Positions 1 through 59,872 of a stretch of 64,000 nt of DNA are shown one piece after another. A program made the translations under genes and the position numbers. Each line of letters opens with the position of its first letter. Positions within the stretch are counted from its first letter, which is position 1. Origin of the DNA: Geosiphon pyriformis uo1 (lineage: Eukaryota > Fungi > Glomeromycota); NCBI GenBank assembly GCA_016748015.1, contig JAAOMT010000400.1:624970-688969 (forward strand), written 5' to 3'. Below the pieces are notes generated by a model. That model saw nothing but the letters and a program-made list of their open reading frames with translations, made no database searches and had not been told where the DNA came from.

Positions 1-541
1 TTATTGTCACTTCATCAAAGACTTTTTTAAAATTGCTCAGCCACTTAACCATCTCCAAACCAAGAATGCAAAATATGAATAGACTGAAACTCAACAAAAA
101 GCTTTTGATACTTTAAGAAGAAAGCTCATTCAAGCTCCAGTATTAATATATTCAGATTATAGTAAACCATTTATTATTACTACCAATGCATCAAGTCAAG
201 CATTAGGAGCAGTATTATCTTAGAAAAGACCAGATGAAAGAGAACATCCAGTAGCATATGCCAGCTGAGATTTAACTCCAGCCAAAAAGAACTATAAAAC
301 ACCAGAATTAGAACATTTAGCAATCTATTGGACAGTTATGAAATGGAAAGAATACTTGAGCCAAAAGTTTGAGGTATACACAGATCACAAAGGATTAACA
401 TCACTCCAAAAACAAGAATTTGGAGACAGAAGACAGTCAAGATAGAAAATGGCTCTTTTGACATATACTTATACCATACATTATAAAAAAGAAAAAGACA
501 ACAGAAATGCCGACAGTTTGTCATGAATGAGACAAATTTAA
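1..541 (+). pseudogene. Element A ORF1 3' end: RT thumb/RNase H, degenerate
   Basis: Reads IITTNASSQALGAVL..HPVAYAS.DLTPAKKNY..NADSLS*MRQI* with transition-type stops; terminal TAA 539-541. Confidence 0.88.
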
Positions 542-1383
542 GAACATTTCAACCCAAAAATATAACAAAACCAAAACAATACTCACAAAAATATAACAAA
601 AGATGAATACACAAAAATATTAACAACTTCAACATTATATAGATACTTAACAGTTCAAGAAGAAATTATCCCAATTGGAACAAAAGAAAATCAAACAACA
701 ATCCAAATATTTTATTATTTACCAAAATATACTTTATTGGAAAAATAGAAAAGATGCAGATCAACCAACCAAAGTAATTACAGAACCAAAAAAGGAGACA
801 ATACTGTTCAACATACACTCAGATCCAACTACAGAACATTTTCATAAAGAAGATACCATGGAAAGAACCAGAAAAAGATACTATTAACCATCAATGTATT
901 CAGACATCATCCAATATATGCAAAATTGTGATGCTTGTCAAAAAAGAGAAGGAACAAGACCCAGCAAACCATTAAGACCAATCAAAGTGAGACAATCATT
1001 TGACCACATTGGAATCGATTTAGTTGGACCATTGACAATTACCAGCAGAGGCAACAGATATATTGCAATAGTCATAGACTATCTTACTAAATGGCCAGAA
1101 GCCAAAGCAATTCAAAGAGCGGATGCAGAATCCATTGCCAAATTCATCCATCAAGATCTGATTTGTTGACATAGATGTCCAAAAAAACTATTATCAAACT
1201 AAGGAACTCATTTTGTGAATAGAACATTAGCAGAACTAAGCCAAAGATTCGGAATTAAGAGACCACTATCATCACTATATCATCCACAAACCAATGGATT
1301 AGTTGAAAGATTTAATAGAACATTGTGTGAAGCAATAGTGAAACTCAGCCAAAAAAACCAGGATGAATGGGATTTGTTCATAC

Positions 1384-2038
1384 TGTTATAGTTGAAACTC
1401 ATAATTTTTATTAATTATCACATGTATTAGTCACTGATGTCATATAATTAGCCACTCTATTTTTAGATAGTGATCATTGACCTAATCATTGACCTGGTCA
1501 TTGACCTGATCATTAACCACTTTCAATAGCTATATAAGCAATGAGTCTCTTAGCTGTAGAAAATCATCTCTCAGACAAGAATCAAATAAATAAAAATAAC
1601 AACTTTCATCTTAATCACTCTTTTATCGCTAATTTCCCTTTCCCTATCTTCAAGTATCCGAACATCTTAGGATAAAAGATTACTTGTTGGCCTTTTCTTG
1701 ACATATATAATTGTAGCATTTGAAGATTATTTGAATAAACGTGACTGAAGAGCACAAGTTGATACCTGATATTGAATTCTAAGAGTGCTGATGTGAGGGA
1801 TAGAATTATACTAGCAGTTATCAATTGTTGACAGTATGGACTATCCCTCTACCTTCAGATTCCCTTGTTACCTTTTGAAAAGAATAGCGACTGAGATATT
1901 TTATGAGACTGATCTTGCACATTGAATCCATACTCATTCAATTTGCTCATTGAAGTTGAATCCCCTTTAATTATTTCCATCACCCTACAATCCTGTTCTC
2001 CCTTGCTATCTGTTAGCTTGTTACTCCAACCCATAACA
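1384..2038 (+). repeat. Element B 5' LTR (655 bp)
   Basis: TGTTA...TAACA; colinear with 8362-9004 apart from one extra 12-bp unit; TATATAA at 1531. Confidence 0.95.
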
Positions 2039-2044
2039 TAAAAG

Positions 2045-2061
2045 TGGTGCTCTTTGTAAGG
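2045..2061 (+). promoter_or_regulatory. Element B primer-binding site (probably elongator tRNA-Met)
   Basis: TGGTGCTCTTTGTAAGG, 6 nt after the LTR; resembles the complement of eukaryotic tRNA-Met(e) 3' ends (TGGTGCYC...AGG). Confidence 0.7.
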
Positions 2062-2090
2062 TTGTCAAAATTTACTTATTCCCTTATTGT

Positions 2091-5000
2091 ATGGGTGATT
2101 ACTTATATTTGCCACAGCAATCAGAAGAACACTTTATAGCACACAACAGAAACAACCTAGATTTCATTGAACTTAATCCTCTGCCCTCCTGCTTGATCTG
2201 CTTCCCTCTTGAAGAACAATCCAATAGACAATTCCAAGACTTTTGGAACTGGCTCCTGAATGAACATTCAGCTGAAACCTATACAGCTTATACAACCTAT
2301 TACTTTGACCAAGCTTATTTTGAAAACAACTTTGAAGAAAGAAACAACAGTATCAATCAGCTCTTATATTCTGCAACCTTTGAACAACAGCCCCCTGATT
2401 TTGAATATCTGAATTATCAAATCCACATTTGGATTGCTGCCCATTAAGCAACTGAAACTCCCTTTGAAACAGAAGAAGAAAGCTACTAAACTGCCTCTGT
2501 TTTTGACTATTTATTAAGCGAATCAGACTCGTCTACACAAACAGTTACCCCTAAACCAATGACTAATGACCTCATGCAAGCAAACATTTTGGCCGTCCTC
2601 CAAGGTATACAAACTGCTTTAGGAAAAAGAAACAATACCCCACTACCACTATTTAGAGATAATGCACAAGATCTAATTGAATGATTGGATGATTTTGAGA
2701 GAGCTGCCACAGCCAACCAGTATGATGAAGAATACAAGTTCCAAATTGTTGGTGGCTACCTCCAAGGCTCTCCTGCTACCTGGTTCTTACAAGAAACAGA
2801 TGCCAATGCTCAACACAGAATAATCAGATGGACACCAATCAATGCTAGAGAAGAAAATACTTCTTTTACTACCCGATTTGAGGCCAAGTTCAGAACCCCA
2901 ATATTAATATCCAAATGGCACATGGAATTAGAAAGAAGAACCCAAGGCCCTGGAGAAGTAGTGACTGAATATGCCAAAGCTATTAGAAAGCTAATCAAAT
3001 ATGTAGACTCTGGGAGAAATTGGACAGAAGAACAGAAAATTCACTCCTTCACAAAAGGATTGAGAACTGATCTATCATATGCTCTTTGGTCCCTTCTGGC
3101 CCTAAAAGACAACTCTACAATGGACATGGCCATTAAACTTGCCCAACGAATTGAAGACAACCAAAGAATACATTTGGAATCTACATTTCCAGTTTTTGCT
3201 CCTGCTTCTGTCATGGCTTCTGCCTCTCAAATGGCTGCTGCTTTTTTTGCTGCCCAAACTCAAGATCCAAATGAACAATTAATTAATAAACTCACAGCCA
3301 ATTTTGCCCGGTTATTAGAACCTTTGGCACAAGCAGTCAGAGATAACCAGCAACCACCAAGACCTAGATACGAACCTCGTTTTAATTAGCCCCAGCAACC
3401 TCCCTATCAAAGACAACAAAATCATGGCCCACTTGTATGCTATCACTGTGGATTAACTGGACACTTTTCAAGAGATTGCAACAATCCTCCACTGCCTCCA
3501 CCAGTTCCCAGAAACAATAATGCCCAGAACAACAGACCCAACAACAACAATGTTCCCAACCAAAGACCCAATCATGCCAACATCAATTTCTTTGGAGAGG
3601 ATCCCCTAGTTGAAGCCACTGTTTATTAGTCTTTAAACTGGTAGGCGCATCTCCAAAAGATGAGAGTGCAAGCCAATCAGAAGAAAACCCCTTTTACACT
3701 TTTAACTTAACTAATGACAACCATAACATGGATGAATTAGCAATCAACCCCTCTAAATCCACAAGAAAGAAGAAGAAAGCCAAAGTTGATTTCGTTCTGG
3801 ACCCCAATAAAGCTTCTACATCAACTGCTAACAACAATAAGTCCCCAAAAGCCAAAATTTTCAAGAACTCTCCAAAGTTGGAACCTCCAGAAATAGTACA
3901 AAAATCCGGCCCCTATTCTGTTGTCAAAGACCTCATGGAAACCCCAGTACATATAATCTTTGGCCAATTGATGACCCATCCACAATTCAGAAAAGATTTT
4001 TGCAAATCTCTGATTCCAAAGAAAAAGACATCCAAAACTAACAAACGCCCTCGCCAAGCTGGACTTGCTGACAATAGCAATATCACTTCTCTAATTTGCA
4101 AAGCCCAAGTGGTTGGCTACTTCATTGATTTGATCCTAGACAGTGGATCATCTGTTAGTGTTATTGCTAAACACTTTCTTGAAGCAATTGGCAGAAAAAT
4201 TGATGAACCATCCACATGACCAATGATCAATGTGCATGGTGATAAAAAGAAAGGATTTGGCATAGTCAAAGCTATTCCTGTCCGCATCAATGGCATCAGC
4301 ATTGAAACTGATATGGAAGTATCTGAAGTGAAAGAATACACCATTATTGTTGGCAATGAATGGCTCAAGAAAGCAAAAGCTTTGCTTGATTATGAACTCT
4401 GTAAACTAACCATCAGATGTGGTGAGAAATCCATTGTGGTTAAGTGTCGTCATTGGACAACTCCCCCAGTATCCAAGCAGAGCCCAGAAAAAAATGAATT
4501 AGACAAATCAGATGATGAAGAAAGTGAGGAAAAAGAAGAACAAGAAGAAACTGCTAAACTCACTTATACCATCTTTATCAGCAATGACAAACCATTGGAT
4601 AATGTCAAGGCAGATAAAGAAGGAATCATTGTCAATGGCAAGCTGATCTGCTGGCCTTATTATGACATGCTCAGAAGAACCTTTGACAGAAAGCCAGGCA
4701 AGAAAGCCAAATACAGTTATTGGTGGCATGGTTCTTGTGCCTAGTGCTGATACGACAAACCATTGTATTCTCCTAGTGATAAATGCATGTCCTGCCTGAT
4801 CTATTACAAAGATTGGGAACCAATCAGCTTGATATCCTGTGAGGAAATAAAAGAAGTCCAAAAGTCTTTTGAAAACAAACCACCTGAAATCCAATTACTG
4901 GTTGTAGAACAAAGAGAACTCTCTCCAAAAGAAAGAAAAATAGACATTGAAAACCTGCTGGCTAGAAACAGTCCAGTTATCTCAAAAGAAGGTAAACCTC

Positions 5001-6315
5001 CTGAACATACATATGTGATACAACACACCATCATCACCAGAGAAACTTGCCCCATCCATTTGAAGCCCTATTAATCCAACTGGTGCAATGATGAGTTTAT
5101 CAAAAAGGAAATAACCCGAATGAAAAACCTTAGATTCATACAGGAAACTAAGAGTGAATGGGCATTCCCGGTTGTAGTGGTATCCAAGAAAAGAGAAACC
5201 CTATGCTTTTGTGTTAACTATTGCCAATTAAATGTCATTACTAAAAGAGACATGTACCCACTTCCCAAGATTAATACAAGGCTAGACCAATTTCATGGTG
5301 CCACTTTCTTTTCAACCATTGACTTAACTGCTGAATTCTGGCAAGTAGAGATGGATCCAGAAAGCAGAAAGAAAACTGCCTTCATCACCAAGTATGGCAC
5401 CTACAAATTCACAGTCATGCTTTTTGGTTTCACAAATGCTCTTCCCACCTTTCAATGCTTAATGGACAAAGTATTTGAATCAGTAAAAGAAAACTTTGTT
5501 CTAGTTTACTTGGACGACATAATGGCATACTCAAAAACCTGTGATGAATACTTTGAACATTTGCAAAAGGTTTTTGACCTCCTTAGAAATGCTGGCCTTA
5601 AGATCAATCCAATCAAATTATTCTTTGGACGTTAATCCACCCAGTTTCTTGGCCATCTTATTACAAAAGATGGAATTTTTTCTGATCCAGCCAAAATTGA
5701 AAAAGTTCAAACCATTAGACAACCAATGAATATTTATGAACTACGCTCTTTTCTTGGTTTGGCCTCTTATTATTGCAAGTTTGTCAAGAGTTTCTTCAAA
5801 ATTGCCACTCCTCTCAATTAGCTACTTAGAAAAAACATCAATTATCACTGGGGCACTCATCAACAAAAAGCATTTAAAATTCTGAAGAAAAACTGGTTAC
5901 AGAACCCATCCTTATGCAATCTAATCTGGATCGATCTTTTATCCTCCATACTGATACATCTGGTTATGAACTTGGTGCTATTCTTTCCCAGAAAGACAAA
6001 AATGGCAGGGAACATGCCGTAGCATATGCCAGTAGAACTCTCACACCAGCAGAAAGGAACTACTCAGTCATTAAACAAGAATGCTTAGCAGTAGTTTGGG
6101 CTACCAGCTACTGGGACAAATATCTTAAGGGTGTGAAATTTTTGGTGGTAACAAATCACCAAGCTTTGGTTTGGTTACACAACAAAAGAAACCTGGAACA
6201 TAAATGGATAACTTGCTGGATACTCCACTTGGATGAATTCGACTATGACATTCAATACTGCAAAAAAGCTAATCATCAAAACGCTGACGCTCTTTTCAGA
6301 CTTATCATCCAGTGA
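2091..6315 (+). pseudogene. Element B ORF1 Gag-protease-RT-RNase H, degenerate, no dUTPase
   Basis: Capsid-like RTQGPGEVVTEY..FTKGL; CYHCGLTGHFSRDC knuckle (~3438); LILDSGS; VYLDD; LHTDTS..EQECLA-like RNase H; ends TGA TAG TAA at 6313-6321. Confidence 0.92.
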
Positions 6316-6380
6316 TAGTAAAACCCTCCCAAACCAAACCAACTTAATTATTTGTAACTCCCCCACAAACAAACACAATA

Positions 6381-7694
6381 ATGGACTTGGACAACTACTC
6401 TGCCTTAATAGAATTTTTGGGTAAAGGACAATACCCGCCGGATTATACTCGACAGCAAAGAGAACATTTGCACAAACAATTAAATTTCTATTTGATTTGC
6501 CAGAACCAGTTATATAAAAGAAATAGAAAAGATCCTGACTGCCCCCAGAGAGTCATTAGATTTGAAGAAAGAGAAATTGTAATCTACATTATGCACACTG
6601 ATTTATTAGCTGGACACTTTGGAAAAACAAAAACAATTCAGAAAACTTTAGCTTACTATTATTGGCCTACTTTGGGAAAAGACATTGCTGAATACATTAA
6701 AACCTGTAATACTTGCCAAAAAAAAGGAAAACCTAATCGCAAAGAAGATATTCATCTGATCTCTGTTGGTCAACCATTTGACAGAATTGGTATAGATGTT
6801 GTTGGACCTTTAACAGTAACTCCTAATGGCAACAGATACATTATCACAGCTACCGACTATCTTACAAAGTAAGTAGAAGCAAGAGCCACCTCAGATCAAA
6901 CAGCAGTCTCAATTGCCAATTTCATTTATAAAGATATTATCTGTCACCATGGCTGCCCCAAAGAACTTTTATCTAATAAAGAAAGAGCTTTTCTCAGTAC
7001 ACTGGTTAAAGAACTTTGCAGAAAAATGGGAATACGTCATAAACTCTCTTCTTTTTATTACCCCCAAACAAATGGCCTAGTGAAATGTTTCAATAGAACA
7101 CTATATAAAACCCTAGCCAAAACCAGTGAAGAAACCAACCTATGAGACAAAGTATTGCTTTCAGCTTTGTTTGTCTACAGAACTGTGAATCATGACATAA
7201 CAAGTTATGAACCCTTTTATCTGCTTTATGAACGAATGACAATTCTACCAATAGAAACGAATATAGAAACAATACCTTTTGAAAAAATAATAATAGGAGA
7301 TTACAAAAACATTTTGCAAAGAAGACTTGGTACCATTCTTGACTCATTGGTAGAAGCACAGATAATTGCCTTTGAAAAGATAAAACAGTTCCAAGAAAAG
7401 CTCAAAAAGAAAAAAACCTATAAAACACTTTCCTTAAGTATTGGTAACTTAGTTTTGGAATACTATTCAGACAGAGACAATGTCTATGGTGATAAATTCT
7501 CCAGCTGCTGGAAAGGACCCTTTATAGTCAACAAAGTTTTGAACAATGGTTCTTATATCTTACAAGATCAATATGGAACAATCTTTAATGATCACCCTGT
7601 TTATGGCACACGACTCAAGAAATATCACAAACGACCTGATTGGTTACCTGTTGTGGTAATACCAACCCAAATGATCAACAAAATTCAGATATAA
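6381..7694 (+). pseudogene. Element B integrase, separate ORF
   Basis: ATG 6381 MDLDNY; H..GHFG..CNTC; GIDVVGP; DYLTK; WKGPF (GPY/F) C-terminus; different frame from ORF1. Confidence 0.92.
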
Positions 7695-7735
7695 ATAAAT
7701 GCACTATTCCCAAAACAGAGGTATCTTCAATCAAC

Positions 7736-8302
7736 ATGAACAATTATTTTCTAGATCAAAATATTCAAAACGCTTTCTACACTCTCCATGAGTACTGGAT
7801 CAAAAATTATCCAAATGCTACTCTAACCATTGGAAAACAAACCACCATAACTGATAACAGTAGAACACATACTGTTATTAGACCAAAAAAAACCACTACC
7901 AGAAGAGAAAAAATTGGTAGCAAAATGGATAAGTATTTGCTGAAAAGCATAACAGCAGCAATACTTACATCTTTCATGACAATTGGAAAAATGATTAAAG
8001 AAATCTTGCCCATAGACAAAAACTTGTCATATAGAAGGCAATTAGAACTCTATGATTGTCTTGGTGAAATCATAGAAGAAATGAAGCTCATAAAGAAAAC
8101 AACTTTAGAGATACAAGTGGAAATTTTGGGCATTATACGTTTAGATGTCCCAAGAGTTTTGACCATTGCAAGAAAAGCCAAAACTTTTATACAAAGATTT
8201 GGTCTTTTGGATACAAAGCTTATTTTGCCTCAAGTACTATATACTCTATCCACAAAAGACTTCAACAAACTAATTAGTTTTGAGTTAGACAAAACCCTTT
8301 AA
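7736..8302 (+). CDS. Element B ORF3, unknown ~188-aa protein in env position (frame still open)
   Basis: Open frame within track ORF 7640-8302; ATG in CAACATG context; no signal peptide or TM segment visible. Confidence 0.7.
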   Translation: MNNYFLDQNIQNAFYTLHEYWIKNYPNATLTIGKQTTITDNSRTHTVIRPKKTTTRREKIGSKMDKYLLKSITAAILTSFMTIGKMIKEILPIDKNLSYRRQLELYDCLGEIIEEMKLIKKTTLEIQVEILGIIRLDVPRVLTIARKAKTFIQRFGLLDTKLILPQVLYTLSTKDFNKLISFELDKTL

Positions 8303-8361
8303 TTAGAATACCCTATAAATAGCTTGATTTCACTGGAGCTTAATCTCTTTGAAGAGGATGA

Positions 8362-9004
8362 TATTACAGTTGAAACCCATAATTTTTATTAGTTATCACA
8401 TGTATTAGTTACTGATGTCATATAATTAGCCACTCTATTTTTAGATAGTGATTATTGACCTAGTCGTTAATCTGGTCATTAACCACTTTTAATAGCTATA
8501 TAAGCAATGAGTCTCTTAGCTGTAGAAAATCATCTCTCAGACAAGAATTAAATAAATAAAAATAACAACTTTCATCTCAAACACTTTCTTATCACTAATT
8601 TTCCTTTTCCTACCTTCAAGTATTCGAACATCTTAAGATAAAAGATTACTTGTTGGTCTTTTCTTGACATATATAATTGTAGCATTTGAAGATTATTTGA
8701 ATAAACATGACTGAAGAGCACAAGTTAATACCTGATATTGAATTCTAAGAGTGCCAATGTGAGACATAGAATTATACCAGCAGTTATCAATTGTTGACAG
8801 TACGGACTATTTCTCTACCTTCAGATTCTCTTATTACCTTTTGAAAAGAATAGCGACTGAGATATTTTATGAGACTGATCTCGCACATTGAATCCATATT
8901 CATTCAATTCGCTCATTAAAGTTGAATCCCCTTTGATTATTTCCATCACTCTACAATCCTGTTCTCTCTTGCTATCTGTTAGCTTGTTACTCCAACCTGT
9001 AACA
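8362..9004 (+). repeat. Element B 3' LTR (643 bp)
   Basis: Follows PPT GAAGAGGATGA (8351-8361); matches 1384-2038; ends TGTAACA. Confidence 0.95.
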
Positions 9005-9664
9005 ATATCATCAGTATTATTTGCTTATTGGACAATGAAGTAAGACACCACACAAACAACATCATTTGAATTGATATATGGTAAAACAGCAACATTACCA
9101 GTTGAGATAGAAGTTAACACATATCCAACTGAACCAATAACAGAAGAAAATTTCCAAGAAACATTGTTAAAAAGAACATATGACTTAATGGAAACATTGG
9201 AAAACAAATGAAAAAGAGCAGCTGATAAAATACAAAAGTCACAAGAGAAACAGAAAAAAAGACATGATAATCAACTACCAGACAAACCAGTTGAATTCAA
9301 AATTGGAGACAAAGTATTCTTACATTGTACCAAAGCAGAAAAACAATAGAGTGGAAAATTTGACCCCAAATGAGATAGACCATTTCACATAAAAAAAATT
9401 CTAAGGAATAGAGCTTACAAATTAAGACTAGATAACAAAATTTTAACCAAAGCAGCACATGAAAATTGACTGAAACCATACCACAACATCACACCACTAT
9501 TCACCAGTAATATTCCACAATTAAGAGTACAAAAGATACTAGTCCAACCAGAGGAAATTCCATGAGATCTGAAACCAATCATCATCATTGACAACAACAC
9601 GTTAAATTAATCCATAAAAAGAATATATAAAGACATGGTAGACACGACAAGAAATATTAGAAAA

Positions 9665-10288
9665 ATGGAAATTACAGACAACATCCATTTACTAGCACAA
9701 CAACTCTTTCAATTGATTCAACACCAAAAGATGAAAATTACAATTAATCAACAAACCATTCAATATCAAGACACTAGAAAAATATCACCACATAGAACAC
9801 AGAAGAAAACAGAAAATACTGTTGACAAAATCATTGTGAAAGTAAAATTAGCAATAAAAAAGTTGACAAAAAAGTCACTATATTAAGAGTTGACTAAAAA
9901 AACTTGGAATTGGTGGATACAACAATTTTCAAGAAACTATTGTTATTTTTACTTGGGACAACACGTGAATATCCAGAATCTATATATGGATAAAACAAAG
10001 CAATTATTCAACATCAGAATACTACAACAATTAAAACATTTTGTGGGAAAGAACAACTTATCCACACAGACCCAAGTCATATACCAAATACACACAGCAT
10101 TTCAGGATCGACCAGAAATCTTACTCAACAAAGCAATGGACACAGTTACCAATAATCAATTAAAAAAGATCATTAATGCTCAATTTGAAGAATTACAGAC
10201 TCAAATAACACAAGTAATTCTTGAAAATGAAATTCAGGAAATACTTCAAGAAGGAGAATTAACAGAGTTAGATTTTGATGGGGCTTAA
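9665..10288 (+). pseudogene. Element A ORF3, unknown protein (one internal TAA)
   Basis: Track ORFs 9635-9886 and 9890-10288 share a frame; YCYFYLGQHVNIQNLY motif shared with E and F ORF3. Confidence 0.8.
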
Positions 10289-10307
10289 GATTAAAAGGAG
10301 AGAATAA

Positions 10308-11084
10308 TATTACTTATAGAAATATAGAGAATATATATTAGCATAGTTATTAACCAATTAGAAGTAGACATAGTAAAATATGGAATTCCAGGATTCCTCT
10401 TAGGAATTGCAGGATTCCTGTTGTGAAGAATTGAAGAATTAAGGAATCTCAATTATATATATATAGCAGTAGGATTAGAAGCTAAAAAGACAGACCTCTC
10501 AGTTTAAATTTCATCTAGACAACCTTCCAAACCACAAATAAATAACTGTTTGTTATCTCAAACCCGCTGTTACTATCAATACTTCATGTTGATAATAATT
10601 AATCTTTAACCATACTGGAACAATAGCTTTTGATTATGGCTATTAATGGAATACTAATTTGCAAATCGCCTTGGCTTATTTCTTTTCTTTCTTTATTTTC
10701 TTTTCTTTTTTTTATTTCTTGCTTTGATTTTATTGTTGTTTACTAACTCTATTGAGGATTAATGTGTGGGATACTGATATCAGGATAAACGTGACTGGTA
10801 AAAAACCCAGAAATAAGGGTAGAACACTCAATTGAGGATAGCTTACCAGAAAAAATACTGGCCATCAAGCTGAGAAAGAAATTGACAAAACTGCGGTTTC
10901 GGGAAGCTATGAATAAAACTATTACCATTAAATCTCTGTTTATTATACAAAGAACTCAACCAAACCCTTTGAATATAAATCTGTCAGACACAAATCTTCA
11001 GATCACTATCAATTGCAACTAAATTTGAGCACCAAGTTATGAGTTTGTTATCTAATCCAACACCAGAAATAGTCACCTGTAACA
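10308..11084 (+). repeat. Element A 3' LTR (~777 bp)
   Basis: After PPT; TATTAC (decayed TGTTAC)...TGTAACA; 3' half alignable to the F LTR. Confidence 0.88.
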
Positions 11085-12580: not shown

Positions 12581-12905
12581 TAATAATCTTTAATATAAAT
12601 TTAAATAACTGGTTATATATAAGCAAATCATAAATTGTTTTTTTTATTTTTTATATTTAATAAGTAAAGTTCAAATACTATTTAGTACAATATATCAAAC
12701 TAAGCAATTTAAACTAAGTATAAATTATGTATTTTTTATATGTAACTAGTTACTTAAAACAATATTATATATTTATATACACAAAAACCATATTTTTAAT
12801 ACCTAAAAAAACAAATACAATTTGTGTATATTAAAATTAATTTCAAAACTTTAATAATTTCAAGCAGCTTAATTATATCATTAGACAATATAAACAAAAA
12901 ACCAT

Positions 12906-42117: not shown

Positions 42118-42201
42118 TGTTTTAATTTTGACTGCTATTTTGGAATCTTTTGCATGCATTTTTATGGTTGTTAAATCATTTTTGCTGTGATCTAAGATTA
42201 A

Positions 42202-44468: not shown

Positions 44469-44488
44469 NNNNNNNNNNNNNNNNNNNN
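44469..44488. other. Assembly gap (20 N) flanked by a 270-bp overlap duplication
   Basis: 44199-44468 is repeated at 44489-44758 with two C/T differences. Confidence 0.9.
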
Positions 44489-45734: not shown

Positions 45735-46160
45735 CTTGTCAATCCAAAACCAAAAGTTCTTCTCGTTGTTTGTGACAATTTCTTACGATTTTCTACTGGC
45801 ATGAATTTCCCAATTTTTACCAATGGTAGGAAAATTGCTTGTGCAATTTTTTCCTTAGATTCAATGGTATAAGGCTTTTCTGAATTGTTCTGTAGCAAAA
45901 CCATCAAATTTCCAGTGTATTCGGAGTCAATTACTCCTTCTTGAATGCTTATTTCTTTTTTTGCAAGGCTTGATTGCGATGCCATTTGAACCATTATTCC
46001 TGGTGGAATTTCAACCACTATTTTTAGGTCAATTTTGGTAATGCTCCTGGGTGGTAACGTTGTGGATTGGTCTTCTGGATAATGTAGATTGAATCCAGCG
46101 TCGGTTGGATGGGGTCTTTCGGGTATTATTCCTAAGTGCCCGTTGTCGAAGTATCGGATG
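45735..46160 (-). pseudogene. Trimeric dUTPase domain in element E
   Basis: DAGFNL, ASQSSLAKK, GVIDSEYTGNL, EKIAQAI, RRTFGFGLT. Confidence 0.92.
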
Positions 46161-49100: not shown

Positions 49101-49668
49101 AGCTCTTAATGGAATTTGTATCTTATTTTCTGGTGAAAAATGGTATGATTTATCTTCTGGTGAATAAATACGTTGTTTTTTTATTGATTGAGTGACAGTT
49201 TTCTTTGGCGTTTGAGCTGGTGTTCCTAGTTTTTGCTGATTACTTTCCTGATTAGTTTCTAAATTTTTTTTGGTTTTGTTGGCGCGTTCCCTAGTGTTTC
49301 CTGTGGATATTGGAAAATTTTTGTTGGCGTATTGCTCAATTTCTCAATGGATTTTGACAATAGTTGCAGCTATTACTGCTACTTTTTTTGTAGTGTATTG
49401 TGATAATTCTCTATACAATCCAAGTTTTGCATTGTGTGGTTCTTCTTCCTTTCCTATATGATAATTTATTCTGGCGTTAATATAATAAGTGAGGGCAGAT
49501 TCTGCTGGACAACACCCTTCTGGTAATCCAAGATTACTTTGATTTTGTGTATAAATAGCATGGCAAAATTTAAGAACAGTAAGATTAGGGGTTTTTGTCA
49601 CCACTTTTGTCTCTTCCTTTTTAGCAATGAATTATTGCTAATTATTATTTCCTTTTTTGATTTTCTTT

Positions 49669-49685
49669 CCTCATAGGGTTCACCA
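49669..49685 (-). promoter_or_regulatory. Element E primer-binding site
   Basis: TGGTGAACCCTATGAGG, 2 nt after the LTR. Confidence 0.7.
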
Positions 49686-49687
49686 AA

Positions 49688-50565
49688 TGTTACGGGATGG
49701 TTTTCTTGTTATATTTAATTGCTGATATCCCATTTTAATTGCAATCAGTCTTTCGTGAGTTCCTCAATTCTATTTGTGTAATAATGTCACTGTTACACTG
49801 AAGGCTTTCTTTTTACTGTTGTGATGTAAGTTATTCTTCAATTCTTGATTGTTGTGTGTGTTTATGTACTCTTTCTCAGAGGCTGAACTGAAATCTACCC
49901 ACTGTTTGGGGTCTTCTCTGAGGCTATCCTTGCAATTGCCTGATGTGTTTCTCTAATCTAGAAACACAGAATGTTAATGGTCTTTAGCGCTTTTCTAATT
50001 CTTACAATAAAGCTTTTATCAATTAGTAACAACATGAATAATCTTGATCAAGGATTATTCTTCCAAGAGATTCAGTTGATGAATGATAGTTTTATTTAAT
50101 AAATAATACAAGTAAGTTTCTTAATACTTTGGGTTGTGATAGTTCAGTTTTAAATATTTTTTTCATTTCTTTTTGATTTTAAAGGTTTCTTGGGATATTT
50201 AATTTGAAAGTATGATTTAAACTGGAGTTTGTTAAATAAAATTGGATCTATTACTTGATAAGTTATGATTTTTATTACTTGATTGATTATTTTCTAATAT
50301 TAAAACTACTGTATATATACATGTTTGTAGTTCTATGAAAAAACACATTGTAATACTTTCTTTTTGATATTTCAACCTGGTATTTGTTGCTATCACCAGT
50401 TGGTATTGGCTGCTATTGTGAACTGGTGCTTGCCACTATCACAAGATGGTGTTTGCTACTATATTAATTATTACCTTTCTAAGATTATTACTGTGCTATA
50501 TTATGATTAAATAGTTTGTATTATTTTTATGATTCTTTTTTTTGCTAAATTCTTAAACCATAACA
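49688..50565 (-). repeat. Element E 5' LTR (878 bp)
   Basis: Direct repeat of 40569-41435 with an 11-bp indel. Confidence 0.96.
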
Positions 50566-50569
50566 GTGG

Positions 50570-50742
50570 TTTCAGGAAGCTATGGATAAAACTGTTACCA
50601 CTGAATCTCTGTTCATTATACAAAAAACTCAACCAAAATTTTCAGATAAACACACCTTCAGATTGCCATTATTAACAACAGCTTTGAACACCAAGTTACG
50701 AGTTTGTTATTTACTCCAACAACCAAGAAAACATCTGTAATA
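50570..50742 (+). repeat. Element F 5' LTR, right part
   Basis: Matches ~59700-59872. Confidence 0.93.
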
Positions 50743-50744
50743 TT

Positions 50745-50761
50745 TGGTGTTTCCTGTAAGG
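50745..50761 (+). promoter_or_regulatory. Element F primer-binding site (probably elongator tRNA-Met)
   Basis: TGGTGTTTCCTGTAAGG, 2 nt after the LTR; differs from the B PBS only by C/T changes. Confidence 0.7.
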
Positions 50762-50802
50762 TATAATCCTACAAAAAATTAGCACTAACAAATAAATCAA
50801 CA

Positions 50803-53800
50803 ATGACAGAATCAGAAAGTATAGGAACAAACCATTTAGAATTTGTGAAATTCTTATTTCAACACTATTGTCAACACTTGGGATTGAATTACAATCAGAT
50901 ATTAGCAGAATCAGCCTTCAATTTCTATGTCAATAAAAAAATTGTCTATTTGTTAAGAACACCAGTAAATATTGAATCAGCAAGAAAAACTTTTTACCAT
51001 AAATTAATCCAAAACACCAGCTTACCAACAAATTATAATTTCACATCCATTATTACTGAGATTAATAAAGAAATTGAACATCACATACAACAAAGATACC
51101 CAATTACTTATGCCAATAAAGGCAAAGGAAAATTACAAACACTGGCAGTAACACTTCAATGGATCTAACCACTTACTTGAAAGAAACACAGAATTGAATT
51201 ACCTACAAATCCATTATATCATTATACTCCTGGAAGTGCCATTAATATCACATCAACAGGCATGTTTACATTAAATGTGACATCAACATTTGGATAATTT
51301 CCATTCCAAAGTAAACAAAAGAAAAAAGATCTATTAAGACCATATGGTGCATACTTCAAGGAATTCAAATCAAGATCACCAACGCCATCAGGAGTTTGAT
51401 TACCACCACCTCAACCAAATTTTGGAATTACTGATCCATGGGAATCAACTGAATTGGAAAAAAAACAAGAAAAAGAAAAAGAAAAAGAATCTGAAGATCA
51501 AAAATTCACCTACCAGAATCCGATTATTGAGAACCTGAATATTGGGATCCTAAATTTTTAGACTCAGTAAGATCAAAATCTAGAAAATCCAGAAATCAAA
51601 ACTCCACCAAATCAGAACAACCAAAACTTTGACTTAATTAATCAACACAACTTATCTTCAAATATTATCATCAATCAGCCACCAATTGAACTGATTATTG
51701 AACCGATTTAATAACAGCAAATACCCTTTTAACAGCCATCACTACAGCAACTTATCTAGCAAGCGGTTTAGCAACTGCAACAACAGCTTCAACTACCAAT
51801 ACAATAACAGCAACCAATTGCGCCAATAGCTTTGGCACCAATTGCAAAACTTGAGAAGTTCACCGGCAAAGAGGATGATGCCCAGACATGGATCAATAAT
51901 GTTACCAAAGCCATTACTGCAAATAATTGAGATGACACAAGAACAATGCAAGTCATCCCATATTTCCTAAAGAATACTGCCAACTCATAGTATCATAGCT
52001 TGGCCCAGAAACCCCAAAATTATAATGCATTTAAAATAGAATTCCTAAGATATTTCAGTAATAATAGTAGCATCAACTATCTGGCAAGTAGTTTCACCAC
52101 CCTAAAGCAAGGGAACACAAAAGCAGTCACTCATACTAGAGATTTTAAAGCTGCTGAGTTAGAAGCCAATCATGCCCAAGCTGTGAATTTAGTAATGAAT
52201 GGATCATCTGACTTGGATTTTAAACTGAAACAATTCAGTAATTCCATTAATCAGAAATTAGAGAGATACTTAGCTAACAATTATTCAATTTATCAGTCTT
52301 CTCAATGATGTAATAATTAGGGAAACACAAATTGTTTCCAAAATCAGTAGCATCTATCATTATCAACAAATCAGCCATGGCAACAAGAAATGTAAATCTG
52401 CCACAACTGTGATAAACAAGGTCACATTAGAGCCAATTGCCATGCTTATAGTAACCCATGATTGGGAAATCAATATCAGAATCCTGATTGCTGGTTCCCA
52501 ATTCCGAATCATTACTTGAATCAAAATCAATATCAATCCGCTTATCTGCCAATAATGCCACCAATTTATCAAACACCAGTATATTAATTTCAAATATATC
52601 AACTGCAGCCATCCATAATATATCAACCACAACCACAAATAGTCTATCAATTACAACAATCAATTCAAATACCACCCCAAAACACATTTATGATAACATC
52701 CAGAAACCCCAGATCCAGAGTAATCCAAAACTAAAGATCGGCGATGGTGGTTCACCAACTAATCCTCAGTTTATCAAATCAACTATCAGAATCATGCCAG
52801 CAGAGTTTAGGAACTGGGTATAACCAAAACCCAAGTTCCCAGAACTACTTAAGTCTTCTGATTACCCCAGAAGATGCTATATCCAGCAAACAGGAAACCA
52901 ACCAGAAGCCACTTACCTGCAATATTCTACCAGCTGCCAGCACCGAAGACGAATCACTTGTTGCCATATTTCCATTTGAACTTGAGAAAATCACATCAGT
53001 TCCATTATTCAGTGGAGCCGCTCTGGATACCAAACCAATAACCATGATGTATACTAATGCCAAAGTCAATGGTTAGTATATTAAACTGATCCTGGATAGT
53101 GGATTAACTGGCAGTATTATCACCAAACAACTTATGGATCAATTAAGTCGCTGAGTTGATCAAGCTGCCAGCACAAGAATCATCACAGCCGATGGAGCAA
53201 CCAAAACTCCTATTGGCAAGATTGACAACTTCCCTTTTAAAGTCAACAGCATCATAGTTCTTATTAAAGTTTTGGTGATAAAAGCCACTCAATACCAAGC
53301 ACTAGTTGGTAATAACTGGTTTATGAAAACAAATGCCATACTGGATTGGACAATGCAAGAGCTCCAACTTAGCCAAAATGGTCAACATACACATGTACTA
53401 GCCACGTGTGGCCATTTCAAGACTATCAACACATCAGCACCACTCATCGAGTTTGAGGAGAAAAAAAAAAAACCTACTTGGGAAGCCTATCAAGTCTTGT
53501 GGGCTGACAATGACCACAATGAACTACTGCCAATACTCTCTTGGAATGACAATGACAATAAAAAAAGAAAACAAAGAGAAAAACATATCTGAGAAACCAT
53601 TATTGACACTTGGACCAACAATAGCCAAAGTGAGTTGCTACCAACAATAAGCTGAAAAGAAAAAGGGAAAGGGAAAGAAAAAAAAGAAAATGTACCTAAA
53701 GAAATCAAATCCACAGAAACACAACCAAAGGATGGACAAGCTCATACTCCATTCACCAGCTGCTATCACAGTCACCATTTATTCCACTTAAATACAAAGA

Positions 53801-56800
53801 CTGTGAAAAAAAACTTTCTTCCATGGGAGCATGGATCACGCCAGACAAAGACCACTGAACACGAACACATTATTACTGCAAACTGTGCTATCGCAAATGC
53901 TATGGATATTCAAAGTGCCAAGGCAAGTGGGACAATGAACCATGTCTCACTTGTGGCGAACAGCTACTCGACGAAAGGATGTGGAACAACATTCTTGGTT
54001 AAGAAGGAACATGCGACACTTTATACCAGTACATGATTCTCATTAATGACTAGGTGAGTCATGGCATGCTCATAATAACAGTTTGGCAAAGAATGATTAA
54101 CTGATTGGATGGCTACCCACACAACGAGAATGAGATCTGGCGAATGGCAAATGCCAAAGTTCAAGAAGCCATGCCCAGTGAAATTCTGGAAGTTAAAAAC
54201 AACCCACCTGAACAGATTAACATCATTCTTGTTCCAAATCTAGACATCTTTTTCAACATAAAAACCAACTCAGAAGACTTCCATGAGCATTACCAAAACT
54301 TGGCACCCACCAGAAAAGAACAAGAAAAGTGTTTAGCACAGCTAAACACTCAATTATGTGACCATTGTTTAATTTCATGTGACTTTCAATATTGTAATAA
54401 ATGTGACCTCATTTACAACCCACTGATCTGCATGATCTACATGATCCCAGAAGAAGAAGAACCAATCAGCAGCTGCACATAGGAATCAGAATCAATTTTC
54501 AATTTCAACTCAAACCCCAACAATGATAACGACAAAAATAATGGTTCTAGCTCCATTCAAAATAGCAATAACAATAACAATGATTCCAACTCAGATTCAA
54601 ACTTCGATTCAAACTACAAACAATATATCGCACTCTCTGACCTCACCAAGGAGCAGAAACTAAAATGGTTCAGCAACAATAATGAAAGTATTATGCCAGA
54701 ACATGTGCATAATACTGATGCAGGGTTTGATTTAAGATATCCTGGAAAAGATGTCATTAAATTGAAACCACATTCACATACTTACATTGATCTGAAAATA
54801 GCACCAGAAATTTTAGCAACCACAATGGTTTAACTAGCATCTAGGAATAGTCTAGCAAAAAGAGGAATTAACATCAAAGAAGGAATAATTGACACAAGAT
54901 ATATAGAAAATATCATTGTTATACTACAAAATAATTTAGAAAAGGCCTATGTAATAGAGCCAAATGAAAAAATAGCACAGGCAATATTCCTGCCTCTGGT
55001 CAAAATAGCTCAGTTAGTATCAGTAAGAAATAGAAAAAAATTAAGAATAACAGCAAGAGGGATACAAGGGATTTGAATCAACAGGTAGAGTAGATATACC
55101 AGTTAATATGGTGAAAGAAGAGATTATTGACAAGAAAAAAATTATCTCCACCAGTCAACCAATTTCTATTCCACCATATAACCAGTATATGGTAGTCATA
55201 GAAAGAAAAGTAAAGGATCAGAACCAGATTTTTGAGGCAGAAGCAGTACATTGTAAATTAGAAAAAATTGGACTCATTAATCTTCACATACCAGCCAAGA
55301 ACTACAGCCACATTAAAATTCCCATTTACAACAATACTGGAAAAGTTATAGAGATACCAGAAAAAACTATCATAGGACATTTAATTACTAAAATAGAGGA
55401 CCAACCACCAAACTCTATTCCAGACTTTCCACAGCTTTGTGAATATGTTGACATTACATCACAAACAATATATAAACAAAATAAATGTTATTTGCTCCAA
55501 CCAGAACAATTGAAACAAATAGACATGGAGAATCTAGACCCACTCCAATGCATGCAGCTGAAGATATTGCTTAACAAGTTTAATGACATCTTCACCAGTG
55601 AGAATGAATTCAACAGAACTGACATCATCCAACACCAGATCAAAACTGGAGATGCTATGCCAATAAAACAATAAATATACAGAGTACCATCTGCCAGCTA
55701 TGAGATCATTTGTCAAGAAATTAACTGGATGCTTGACAATAGGTTAATTCAGCCATCAATGAGCCCATAGTTATCACCAGTAGTACTTGTTCAGAAAAAG
55801 AATGGGAAAATCCGCTTTTGCATGGACTACAGAAAGCTTAATGGAGTCATGCATGGAGACAGCTATCCAACTTCATGAATTCAGAAATTATTTGATGCTT
55901 TTGGGGGAAACAAATAGTTCTCAACATTGGATTTAGATAGTGATTACTGGCAAGTAGCCATGGATCTAGTGGACAAAGAAAAAACCACATTTACAATACG
56001 GGAGGGAAATTTTGAATTTGAAATAATATTATTCAGCTTAACAAATGCTCCAATCACATTGCAGCAGCTAATAGAAATAGTATATACTGGCTTATTGTGG
56101 AAATCAGTAGTTGTTTATTTAGATGATACCAATATGTTCTCCAAAACATTTGATAATCATTTGCATCATCTATAACAAGTGTTTGAAAGGCTATGACAAG
56201 CAGAGCTAAAGTTAAATGCCAATAAGTGCTTTTTTGGCAAGACAAAATTAAAATTTTTAGGGCACATAGTAAGCAAAGATAGCATCAAAATGGATCCAGA
56301 AAAGATAAAGATAGTCAAAAACTTTCCAGTACCAACCAATGTGGCAGAGTTAAAATCATTCTTGAGATTTGCAGACTATTATCAATGCTTCATCAAAAAC
56401 TTTTTCAAGATAGCCCAACCACTCAATTATTTCCAAACCAAGAATGTGAAATACAAATGGACAGAAGCACAACAAGAAGCTTTTGATATTCTAAAAAGAA
56501 AGCTTATACAAGCTCCAGTACTAATCTATTCAGATCACAATAAACCATTCATCATTACCACTGATGTATTAGGCCAAGCATTGGGAGCAATACTATTACA
56601 AAAAGGACTGGATGGAAGAGAACATCCAGTCACATATGCCAGCCGAGATTTAACTCCAGCTAAAAGAAATTATGAAACACCAGAATTAGAACAATTAGCA
56701 ATTTATTGGGCAGTCATAAAATAGAGTGAATATTTGAGTCAGAAGTTTGATGTATACACAAACCATAAGGAATTAACAGCACTTCATAAACAGAAATTTG

Positions 56801-56919
56801 GAGATGGAAGACAATCAAAATAGAAAATAGTACTATTATCATATACTTATACTATACATTATAAAAAGGGAAAAGACAATGGAAATGCTGACAGTTTGTC
56901 ACAAATAAAACAAATCTAA
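50803..56919 (+). pseudogene. Element F ORF1 Gag-PC-rich-dUTPase-RT-RNase H polyprotein (Gag, protease, Cys-rich, dUTPase, RT, RNase H), degenerate
   Basis: CHNCDKQGHIRANC; LILDSG; YYCKLC..GKWDNEPCLTCG; VYLDD; ITTDV; ends NADSLSQIKQI* (56917-56919). Confidence 0.9.
54660..55090 (+). pseudogene. Trimeric dUTPase domain in element F (stop-interrupted, absent from the ORF track)
   Basis: TDAGFDL, ASRNSLAKRGI, GIIDTRY, EKIAQAI. Confidence 0.88.
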
Positions 56920-56948
56920 AACATCTCAACACAAAAATATAACAAAAG

Positions 56949-58323
56949 ATGAACATACAAAAATATCAACAACTATAACATTAAATAAATACTCAACAGT
57001 TCAAGGAGAAATTATCTCAAAATGAGCGAAATAATATCAAACAACAATCAAAACATTTTATTAATTATAAAAATATACTTTACCAGAAAAACAGAAGAAA
57101 TCCAGATCAATCAATAAGAGTTATTACAAAACCAGAGAAGGAGACAATATTATTCAACATGCATTCAGATTTAACAACAGAACATTTTCATAAAGAAGCA
57201 ACCATAGAAAGAACCAGAAAAAGATACTATTGGCCATCAATATATCCAGATATTATTCAATATGTTCAGAATTGTGATGCTTGTCAAAGAAGAGGTAGAA
57301 CAAAACTCAGTGAACCATTAAGACCAATCAAAGTGGAACAACTATTCAACCATATTAGAATTAACTTAGTTGGACTATTAACAATTACCAGCAGAGGCAA
57401 CAGATACATTGCAGTAGCCATGGCTATCTTACAAAATGGCCAGAAGCAAAAGCCATTCAAAGAGCAGATGCAGAATCCGTTGCCAAATTCGTTCATTAAG
57501 ATTTGATTTGTCAACATGGATGTCTAAAAAAACTACTATCAGATTAAGAAACTCACTTTGTGAACAGAACATTAGTGGAATTAAGTCACTGATTTAGAAT
57601 TAAAAGACCAGTATCATCACCATACCATCCATAAATGAATGGTTTAGTTAAAAGATTTAATAAAACACTGTGTAAAGCAATTGCCAAAATCAGTCAAAAA
57701 ATCAAGAAGAATAGGATTTGTTTATACCATCAGTATTATTTGCTTATTGGACAATGAAGCAAGATACTACACAAGCAACATCATTTAAATTGGTATATGG
57801 TAGAACAGCAACATTACCAGTTGAGATAGAAGTCAATACATATCCAACTAAACCAATAACAGAAGATAATTTCCAAGAAATCTTGTTGAAAAGAACATAT
57901 GACTTAATGGAAACACTAGAAAACAGATGACAAAAAGCAGTTAATAACATCCAAAAGTCACAAGAAAAACAAAAAAAAAGACATGATAATCAACTACTAG
58001 ACAAACCAGTTAAATTCAAGATTGGAAACAAAGTACTTTTACATCATACCAAAGTGAAAAAACAATGGAGTAGAAAATTTGACCCCAAATGGGACAGACC
58101 ATTTCACATAGAAGAAATTTTTGGAAATGGAGCTTATAAATTAAGATAAAACAACAAAATCTTAGCCAAAGCAGCACATGGTGATCGACTAAAACCATAT
58201 TACCAAATAGCATCATCATCTACCAATAACATTCCACAATTAGAAGTACAACAAATACTAGTCCAACCAGATGAGATTCCATGAAATCTGGAACCAATTA
58301 TAATCATTGGACCAAACACATAA
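56949..58323 (+). pseudogene. Element F integrase, separate ORF
   Basis: ATG 56949 MNIQKY; HSD..HFH..CDAC; close homologue of the A integrase. Confidence 0.9.
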
Positions 58324-58382
58324 AATCAAACAATAAAAGAGTATATAAAGACACAGTATACATGACAAAAGCAACCAAGAAA

Positions 58383-59012
58383 ATGGAAATACCAGATTAT
58401 ATTCACATCATAGCTCAACAATTATTCCAGGCCTTAAATCAACAATCTTTAAACTTGAAAATTATCATTAACAACCAAACAATTTACTATCAAAACACCA
58501 AAAAAAAGACAAAAAATACACCATATTAACAGTTATCAAAGAATAATAAAAACAGATTAGATAATATAGTAGAAAAAGTAAAGAACACTTTTGGGAAAAT
58601 ACCTATTAGAGCACCAATAAAAGAACTTACAAAAGAGAATTGGAAGCAATGAACAGAACAACTTCTAATATCATACTGTTACTACCAATTAGGTCGAAAG
58701 TTGAATATTCAGGAGTTGTATATCAACAAATCCAAGAGGATATTTAACCAAAATATAATACAGCAAATTGAAGAATTTATTGGAAAAAAAACAAACTCAA
58801 CACTATATGTAAGAACAATTTATTAACTACACAACATATTTTAAAACTATCCAAAAATATTGTTATATTCTAACATAGAAACCATACTCATTAACCAATG
58901 AGGAAGAATGAACAATGTACAAGTAGAAAACATGAAGAACAGAGTCGAACAAACAATACTTGAAAAAGAAGTCTTAGAATTAATTCAAAATGAAGATTTT
59001 GACAGAGCTTAA
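58383..59012 (+). pseudogene. Element F ORF3, unknown ~209-aa protein, several stops
   Basis: MEIPDYIHIIAQQLF..SYCYYQLGRKLNIQELY..EDFDRA*; one frame. Confidence 0.8.
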
Positions 59013-59031
59013 TATTAAAAGAAGAAGATAA

Positions 59032-59872
59032 TGTTACCTATAAAAGAAAAAAAACAGATATAGAAAATAGCAAACCAATAGGAAAATAGTATTTAGCATG
59101 TGAGCACATTGCTCAGCAATGTGGAGCAATGTCAGAAATTATGGCACATTGCTCAGCAATATGGAGCAATGTCAGAAAACACTGCATATTGCTCAGCAAT
59201 GTGAAGCAATATTAGAAAATTAGAGCACATTGCTCAAGAAATCATAGCACATTACTCAAGAATGTGAGCAATCTCATATCATGTATATATAGCAGTAGCA
59301 TTAGAAGTAAAAAAAAGAAGAATCTTTTAGTTAGAAATCTCCCATTCACAAATATTGAATAAATAAATTATTTACCATCCAAATCCACTCTTCACTATCA
59401 ACACTCCATGTTGATAGCAATTGATACTTAATCACACTAGAACAATAGCTCTTGATTATAACTATTGACAGATACTAACTTGCATATTGCCTTGGCTCAT
59501 TTCTTTATGTTATTTCTTTTATTTTCTTGTTTTAATTATTGTTATTACTAATTCTATTGAGGATTAACATGCAGAGTACTGACATCAAGATATAGCACTA
59601 GTAAAAGACCCAGAAATAAGGATAGAACACTCAATTGAGGTTAGCTTACCAGGAGAAACACCAGCCATCACACTAAGAAAAAAATTAACAAAACTGCGGT
59701 TTTGGGAAGCTATGGATAAAACTGTTACCACTGAATCTCTGTCCATTATACAAAGGACTCAACCAAAACCTTTAGATAAACACACTTTCAGATTGCCATC
59801 ATTGACAACAGCTTTGAACACCAAGTTACATGTTTGTTATTTATTTCAACAACCAAGAAAACATCTGTAACA
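59032..59872 (+). repeat. Element F 3' LTR (841 bp)
   Basis: After PPT AAAAGAAGAAGA; TGTTAC...GTAACA. Confidence 0.95.
59105..59240. repeat. 40-bp tandem array of the palindrome CACATTGCT-C-AGCAATGTG in the F LTR (also 39965-40100)
   Basis: Units start at 59105, 59145, 59185 and 59226 (half). Confidence 0.9.

Follow-up and report, generated by a model that had tools for sequence, protein, structure and literature searches.

The integrase of long terminal repeat (LTR) retrotransposons and of retroviruses is held to reach the particle because it is part of Pol. Typical Ty3/Gypsy elements translate integrase within the Pol polyprotein (PMC3248453), and foamy viruses produce the whole of Pol, including integrase, from a spliced RNA; even in these viruses integrase is packaged solely as a portion of the Pol precursor and not as a free protein, and the packaging of Pol needs RNA packaging sequences, contacts with Gag and the integrase C-terminus (PMC3705302). 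Described here is a 64,000-nucleotide (nt) stretch of the genome of the glomeromycotan fungus Geosiphon pyriformis uo1 (GenBank assembly GCA_016748015.1, contig JAAOMT010000400.1, positions 624,970 to 688,969 of the forward strand), referred to as the window. It holds five LTR elements of Ty3/Gypsy type (A, B, C, E and F), some nested in one another, whose integrase is encoded in an open reading frame (ORF) of its own, behind a Gag-Pol frame (ORF1) that ends after RNase H (RH) and ahead of a third frame (ORF3).

Stand-Alone Integrase

In all five elements ORF1 stops four codons past the xDxLxR motif of RH, with an extra internal stop at the R codon in A, and the integrase ORF begins 61, 65, 52, 29 and 29 nt after this stop in A, B, C, E and F, respectively (Table 1). 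The integrase start is out of frame with RH and the spacer is free of ATG codons in every case. The five integrases are only 36-71% identical to one another, and the shared RH stop is therefore not one inherited accident.

A protein search with the C integrase returned 1196 proteins of 245-781 amino acids (aa), including a G. pyriformis protein 85% identical to part of the query. The best 120 are nearly all 390-453 aa long, and 117 of them begin with methionine, mostly in one register and mostly as M-D-L-x-x-Y. As such a search is blind to fusions, loci were fetched and longer proteins were searched as well; at the locus level, relatives are the best 80 soil-metagenome loci (L numbers). In those near the query an unbroken ORF1 terminates behind RH, integrase has an ORF to itself and frequently one more ORF is present, as in L016 with a 1,621-aa ORF1, a 426-aa integrase and an ORF3 of about 143 aa, and the polypurine tract (PPT), LTR start and primer-binding site (PBS) are visible at many of them. 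An integrase fused to RH was found at 11 loci, all with integrases at most 38% identical to the query. The closest among the 120 longer proteins listed are five NCBI gene models from Glomeromycota, four of which include RT; the named sources of relatives are Rhizophagus, Entrophospora, Paraglomus, Cetraspora and Glomus, and the named members of the lineage are Glomeromycota. Rhizophagus irregularis has families with intact copies, among them those that encode GET57239.1 or GBC53574.1. Scans of viral contigs gave no member of the split-integrase lineage.

Transitions have altered the window copies heavily, and the stops could in principle reflect decay, by C-to-T hypermutation and indels, of elements in which RH and integrase were once fused. 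However, the same stop position and an out-of-frame start recur in five families with integrases this divergent, and intact relatives combine uninterrupted ORF1s of 1,479 and 1,621 aa with intact integrase ORFs, which refutes decay as an explanation and leaves it hardly conceivable. The RH stop and separate integrase claimed in the original prediction thus hold in five of five window elements and recur in intact metagenome loci, and it is nearly certain that the stand-alone integrase is a conserved architectural trait of the lineage. The three-cistron layout is likewise a real and conserved trait, and the proposed need for some other way of expressing and packaging integrase is supported.

A fused-integrase Gypsy element at L071 is followed by two deoxynucleoside-kinase ORFs (L071:9155-10974; Pfam dNK, E 6e-41 and 1e-20).

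Junction and Expression of the Integrase

Junction geometry was compared in 30 cases, comprising 25 metagenome loci and the five window copies; left out were the near-duplicates L013 and L024, L011 and L018 (methionine out of register or missing there), L069 (not part of the clade), L074 (parsed wrongly), those loci that lack an RH end and the 11 fused loci. The integrase ATG lies at -14 to -1 relative to the stop in eight cases, including a TAATG and an ATGA overlap, at 24-93 nt in 19 and at more than 100 nt in three. All three phases are represented (13/9/8), excluding one shared frameshift or readthrough. Spacers of up to 170 nt hold 4 ATG codons where 11.8 are expected (P ~0.009), and a purine occupies position -3 in 33 of 40 integrase starts. 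Six of the eight overlap junctions have other ATGs within 60 nt upstream, inside the RH coding sequence; these would trap ribosomes scanning a subgenomic RNA, not terminating ones, and so favour reinitiation.

This geometry makes it somewhat probable that the integrase is produced by termination-reinitiation at the RH stop. The polyprotein ends at RH, where ribosomes would stop and restart at the integrase AUG; the LTR-driven full-length RNA would serve as message for both ORF1 and integrase, and reinitiation would supply free integrase in small quantity close to the RNA that encodes it. Precedents for stop-start reinitiation behind a long ORF are the fungal viruses Cryphonectria hypovirus 1 (CHV1) and HvV190S (Helminthosporium victoriae virus 190S) and the non-LTR retrotransposon SART1, which requires a structure downstream of its ORF1 stop (PMC10275272). 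The elements resemble these systems in having a near or overlapping stop and start (TAATG, ATGA) after a long ORF and an RNA structure near the junction, however most junctions here are gapped by 24-93 nt.

Such a structure was found in one subclade, whose ORF1 has a long tail after RH. A 37-nt hairpin with a conserved 11-nt A-rich loop occupies the spacer there, 21-28 nt past the ORF1 stop at the five loci measured; it usually lies 3-8 nt, and in most carriers 3-16 nt, before the integrase ATG. A model built from seven copies scores strongly in 14 of 81 sources, the seven included, and nowhere in the window. In an alignment of 13 sequences 99.3% of cells are paired and 6 of 11 pairs changed on both sides, compared with 20-50% pairing in slid controls, with the reservation that the structure was derived from the tested sequences themselves, which favours high pairing. 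Rfam gave no match in the eight loci scanned, five of which hold the motif, and the pattern was absent from the viral and prokaryote collections searched. The hairpin shows no evident fit to the hammerhead, hepatitis delta virus-like or twister ribozyme cores.

A second candidate signal is an in-frame TGA-CTA between protease (PR) and reverse transcriptase (RT) at five loci, which are the only CTA-followed stops among 46 TGA-ended long ORFs. UGA-CUA is a type II readthrough motif (PMC3159437), and the TGA-CTA is likely a programmed readthrough site at an unusual position. Together, hairpin and TGA-CTA suggest that the lineage tunes its protein ratios at the level of translation.

Several points weigh against reinitiation. 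The loci counted are related to one another and are not independent cases. Reinitiation would have to span a long distance in three junctions, with gaps of 163, 365 and 727 nt, and seven ATGs lie in one of these gaps. A stable hairpin 3-8 nt before the AUG could impede scanning, and a role as internal ribosome entry site (IRES), nuclease block or operator fits it equally well. At 6 of 40 loci, where 1.8 would be expected (P 0.006), a canonical TATA box lies upstream of the integrase, and some subfamilies may use an internal promoter for integrase.

This TATA excess also speaks for a less likely alternative, in which the integrase is translated from its own subgenomic RNA, either transcribed from a promoter within RH or the spacer that mostly lacks a TATA box or cut from the full-length RNA at a structured element, and the stop-start overlaps reflect mere genome compaction. 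ORF3 is apparently made from an RNA of its own, and the ORF3 of L014 has both a TATA box at -45 and an 8-nt overlap, showing that overlaps alone are no proof of coupling; ordinary 5' leaders, too, could be A/C-rich, poor in AUG and have a purine at -3, and the hairpin could block exonucleases. Against a subgenomic RNA stand the upstream ATGs in six of eight overlap cases and the absence of a TATA box before the integrase in 34 of 40 loci, yet its presence before the ORF3 of the same elements.

Internal initiation on the full-length RNA, with the hairpin as an IRES-like entry or regulatory element, would account for a covarying structure so close to the AUG; it is improbable, as the hairpin is limited to one integrase subclade and missing from the window, and overlap-type junctions have no spacer at all. 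Very improbable is a minor spliced RNA that joins RH to integrase in frame, giving a Gag-Pol-integrase polyprotein packaged as usual. RT-RH is indeed joined to integrase in P0269, P0270, P0271 and P0276, NCBI gene models of Cetraspora and Rhizophagus, however the four joins differ, three omit the end of RH and all four omit the conserved integrase methionine, which suggests that these predicted introns are predictor artefacts. An AG precedes only 4 of 40 integrase ATGs, which counts against a shared splice acceptor, and a methionine conserved in register would be superfluous in a spliced product.

Third Open Reading Frame

The ORF3s of the metagenome loci align as one family, and a profile of it collects 558 clusters at 50% identity. 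Those of A, C, E and F align with the ORF3 of L002, and the profile including L002 matches the family with a probability of 77% (E 2e-5), whereas the B ORF3 gave no significant match to it. Of 22 cases, 15 have a TATA box 16-97 nt (mostly 35-62) upstream of ORF3, where 1.9 would be expected, a count that is weakened by start codons having been picked from alignments by the analyst. With this frequency of TATA boxes, ORF3 is probably a separately transcribed accessory gene, expressed from its own short TATA-driven RNA.

The predicted ORF3 structure is all-helical (mean predicted local distance difference test score, pLDDT, 97). The best structural Z among 48,161 chains was 4.5 and Foldseek gave no match at E 0.001 in PDB or BFVD, which does not by itself prove a new fold for the model. 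Pfam contained no family shared by the members and no env family was matched in its scans; the Atlas gave no usable match. A 19-residue hydropathy of 1.8, taken to indicate a transmembrane segment, was reached by 1 of 125 relatives and none of the five window ORF3s. Resemblances of the C-terminal half to the ribosomal protein uS13 (E 0.27) and of one member to DUF1016_N (E 0.11) are weak leads only. The median isoelectric point is 8.8 and Arg and Tyr residues are conserved, consistent with a basic, helical and probably nucleic-acid-binding factor that would act with or after integrase and not in expressing it.

ORF3 was originally proposed, with the Cys-rich domain of ORF1, as a possible supplier of the route for integrase. 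As a general solution neither is supported. Among 10 loci examined from the subclade with the readthrough site and from its neighbours, 8 pass from integrase to LTR without an ORF3, with PPT and LTR 31-43 nt past the integrase stop at seven loci and 207 nt past it at one, and every junction that could be viewed there (L003, L021 and L022) has a separate integrase, which argues that ORF3 is accessory; the Cys-rich insert was matched in none of the 87 fetched loci. The fusion of ORF3 to the integrase C-terminus in the relative P0273 hints at a role together with integrase.

Two longer proteins, P0405 and P0508, contain one or two ORF3-family domains without retroelement domains and are possibly domesticated copies or gene-model artefacts. 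L005 has an additional 284-aa coiled-coil-like ORF between integrase and ORF3, and at L031 two unannotated ORFs of 198 and 612 aa, the second Cys-rich, follow the split integrase (L031:2942-5367) and are unrelated to ORF3.

ORF1 and the Cys-Rich Insert

Every window ORF1 is broken by frameshifts and stops, and a single Gag-Pol ORF is seen only in intact relatives (L016 and L025). Pfam scans of ORF stretches of B, C and E identified Gag, PR, RT, RH and an integrase with H2C2 and rve domains (families Ty3_capsid, Retrotrans_gag, RVT_1, RT_RNaseH, Integrase_H2C2 and rve), in the order PR-RT-RH-integrase of the Ty3/Gypsy type. ORF1 of B comprises Gag, zinc knuckle, PR, a short Cys-rich insert, RT and RH; those of C and E comprise Gag, PR, a Cys-rich insert (about 23300-22560 in C), dUTPase, RT and RH. 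The dUTPase was identified by Pfam in C and E and by eye in F, and was not found in B. The long Cys-rich insert is common to C, E and F only, as that of B is shorter and unalignable; it has no Pfam family, and its Atlas scores are all below 0.9.

The plan proposed as common to five families is accordingly shared in part. LTR, RH stop and separate integrase are present in all five, but the long Cys-rich insert is restricted to C, E and F, a canonical TATA box precedes ORF3 in A, B and F and not in C and E, and the ORF3 of B stands apart from the family.

At four loci ORF1 runs 270-590 aa past RH (L016:4320-5166, L020:2400-3274, L025:3480-4441 and L037:4930-6705); this tail is acidic and Cys/His-rich and matched no Pfam family. 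L005 has a Gag/Pol overlap in the -1 frame with a TTTAAAC heptamer beside the Gag stop (L005:3132-3147), likely a frameshift site.

Elements of the Window

Elements were delimited by self-alignment and translation, A and F being read from six-frame translations. Ends of Ty3/Gypsy type are present, namely direct LTRs with TG...CA, PBS, PPT and target-site duplication (TSD). The LTR pairs of B, C and E are 92-95% identical. Differences within LTR pairs are almost all transitions (136, versus 4 transversions). Between families only the LTRs of A and F align over their full length (74% over 635 nt), other similarity being one 43-nt match shared by C with A and with F; the claim that LTRs are unalignable except for this pair is borne out. 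So is that of 4-bp TSDs, seen in all four elements with both ends (B ATAC/ATAT, C GCGT/GCAT, E CCAC/CCAC, F TCAT/TTAT), one perfect and three with one transition.

Table 1. Coordinates of the five elements in the window and of sequence signals at soil-metagenome loci.
Feature	Position	Strand	Remarks
Element A	1-1383, 9005-11084	+	split by B; in the window from RNase H onward
A ORF1 3' end (RNase H)	1-541	+	terminal TAA 539-541
A integrase, 5' part	603-1383	+	ATG 603; cut by B
A integrase, 3' part	9005-9610	+	
A ORF3	9635-10288	+	first ATG at 9635; probable conserved Met at 9662, 38 nt after TATATAAA
A 3' LTR	10308-11084	+	PPT before it
Element B	1384-9004	+	inside integrase of A
B 5' LTR	1384-2038	+	followed by TGG-type PBS
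B ORF1	2685-6315	+	decayed; from Gag domain on, true start further upstream; TGA 6313-6315
B integrase	6381-7694	+	
B ORF3	7736-8302	+	TATA box at -46; divergent
B 3' LTR	8362-9004	+	
Element C	16949-26814	-	inside a LINE
C 5' LTR	25834-26814	-	
C ORF1	20170-25750	-	decayed; TAG 20172-20170; 5' end approximate
C integrase	18732-20117	-	ATG 20117
C ORF3	17940-18610	-	3' end frameshifted, approximate
C 3' LTR	16949-17922	-	
Element E	40569-50565	-	inside 5' LTR of F
E 5' LTR	49688-50565	-	
E ORF1	43611-49343	-	decayed; TAA 43613-43611; includes scaffold gap 44469-44488
E integrase	42205-43581	-	start codon reads ATA
E ORF3	41449-42159	-	conserved Met probably 42114; weak match to family profile
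E 3' LTR	40569-41435	-	
Element F	39892-59872	+	5' LTR split by E
F 5' LTR	39892-40568, 50566-50742	+	two parts around E
F ORF1	50790-56919	+	heavily decayed; TAA 56917-56919; 5' end approximate
F integrase	56949-58323	+	internal frameshift
F ORF3	58362-59012	+	conserved Met probably 58383, 41 nt after TATATAAA
F 3' LTR	59032-59872	+	
Spacer hairpin	L016:5193-5229, L025:4464-4500		
Spacer hairpin (L020, L027, L028, L048, L056, L009, L014, L015, L029, L041, L058)			
TGA-CTA site (likely readthrough)	L003:870-875, L021:902-907, L022:3290-3295, L037:3358-3363, L044:1585-1590		

LTR elements make up 41% of the Geosiphon genome (PMC11952901), and the window contains further repeats. A decayed long interspersed nuclear element (LINE) with RT and RNase H (14000-16948 and 26815-30800, plus strand) is interrupted by C, and a second 3' fragment of a related LINE lies at 38000-39500 (minus strand). 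Three older solo LTRs in very AT-rich surroundings (12899-13743, 32267-33077 and 33195-34135) are related to those of E (two) and C (one) at 70-79% identity. In the RT of E, a 270-bp duplication (44199-44758, 99% identical) flanks the 20-N scaffold gap and is a scaffolding overlap artefact. The start of a host gene, which contains tetratricopeptide (TPR) repeats and a tract of His-Asp repeats, lies at 62700-64000 (plus strand).

Phylogeny and Classification

The RT trees were built with database proteins instead of GyDB or Repbase references, a set that does not allow a named clade to be assigned. In the integrase trees the split elements form one group (support 84/95 in the careful tree; Shimodaira-Hasegawa-like approximate likelihood ratio test, SH-aLRT, 85 for 51 rows), with the split locus L069 outside it on a long branch. 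P0273, a single ORF of RT-RH-integrase-ORF3 that keeps the methionine at both junctions, is nested in the group at 100/99, and its exclusion is rejected by the approximately unbiased test (p-AU 0.035); given this nesting, P0273 is most simply explained as a re-fusion. The quick RT tree places 20 split rows on one branch (SH-aLRT 93) together with five fused proteins; it is weaker than the integrase trees and does not recover the split elements as a clean clade, a point against the proposed lineage.

Because integrase lies outside the Pol polyprotein in 30 junctions, the elements are filed as a Ty3/Gypsy-type variant instead of being assigned to any named clade as canonical members. No chromodomain was found on the B, C and E integrases by Pfam or in the precomputed domains of the 120 listed relatives, and the intact ORF1s of L016, L025 and L037 gave no RNase_H (PF00075) match indicative of the extra RNase H of Tat-type elements. 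Gmr1-like Gypsy elements carry the integrase before RT, and proteins of integrase-RT-RH order form their own branch in the tree, apart from the split elements. A YPYY-type motif before the zinc finger and a GPY/F motif after the core are present, as judged by eye against the description in PMC2836005.

Comparison with Known Systems

No description of a separate-integrase layout was found in the literature searched, with Repbase, GyDB, subscription papers and supplements lying outside the search, and none of termination-reinitiation for the integrase of an LTR element. The accessible parts of PMC3248453, PMC2864245, PMC6431247, PMC13468544, PMC10508981, PMC5408684, PMC11952901 and bioRxiv 2021.03.30.436303 do not mention the layout. 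A diverse and successful fungal lineage with free integrase breaks the rule of packaging within Pol, and offers a natural system for studying the entry of integrase into particles and the control of its amount. To fungal retroelements it adds a likely stop-restart case, a readthrough signal and an unclassified RNA structure, along with a large ORF3 protein family without structural match. The lineage also matters for annotation of mycorrhizal genomes, in which gene predictors splice over RH-integrase junctions or label ORF3 and integrase as host genes.

For packaging, the foamy viruses offer a parallel, as an enzyme made apart from Gag must enter the particle through contacts with RNA and Gag; here, however, only integrase has been separated and the starts show no splice acceptor in common. 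The integrase would be packaged by binding genomic RNA or particle proteins instead of being cut from Pol, and may be made on its own genomic RNA and join the particle in cis, much as RNA packaging sequences bring in foamy Pol. This packaging step is proposed by analogy.

Gypsy elements bearing a dUTPase include Tmt1, elements of Postia and Phanerochaete and bdelloid families (PMC2864245, PMC5408684). The window elements share with the fungal and rotifer members a dUTPase between PR and RT and, with those of rotifers, an extra non-env ORF3. They differ in that the integrase is within pol in the elements described in those sources; ORF3s there are env-like, GDSL or DEDDy, none of which was found by Pfam in the ORF3 described here.

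The YPYY-type motif has been described for Ginger1 transposases and for Athila/Tat-related Gypsy groups, including Gypsy-1-I_RO of Rhizopus and DGLT-A1 (Bao et al. 2010, PMC2836005). With these Gypsy groups the lineage shares TG...CA LTRs, PBS, PPT, a Gag zinc knuckle, the PR-RT-RH-integrase order, an N-terminal YPYY-type motif of about 40 aa, H2C2, a DDE core, GPY/F and the lack of a chromodomain, and a plant protein with an extra RNase H is among the nearer fused relatives. The lineage differs in its integrase ORF with a methionine of its own, the third conserved ORF and the subclade-specific recoding signals.

Ginger1 likewise has a stand-alone Gypsy-type integrase with YPYY, H2C2, DDE and GPY/F and a 4-bp TSD (PMC2836005), and in the alignment the starting methionine of P0321, an integrase-Ulp1 protein from a fish that is built like Ginger1, falls in the same column. 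However, the elements described here have direct LTRs and RT where Ginger1 has terminal inverted repeats, lack Ulp1 and OTU, and do not show the CCGG/CCGT preference among their TSDs (ATAC, GCGT, CCAC and TCAT). Joining two Ginger1-like proteins to the split group gave the highest likelihood of the trees tried (p-AU 0.67); alternative placements were likewise not rejected and long branches are involved, so that a sister relation to Ginger1 is put forward as a hypothesis. It is doubtful, but worth considering, that all features combine to make the clade a living intermediate between LTR retrotransposons and Ginger1, with its own integrase methionine at a Ginger1-type start, polycistronic recoding with a new structured RNA, packaging free of Pol, and an ORF3 of undescribed fold in place of a chromodomain-like targeting module. 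Such an intermediate would provide a concrete route for the step from LTR element to DNA transposon, which was called unclear in the description of Ginger (PMC2836005).

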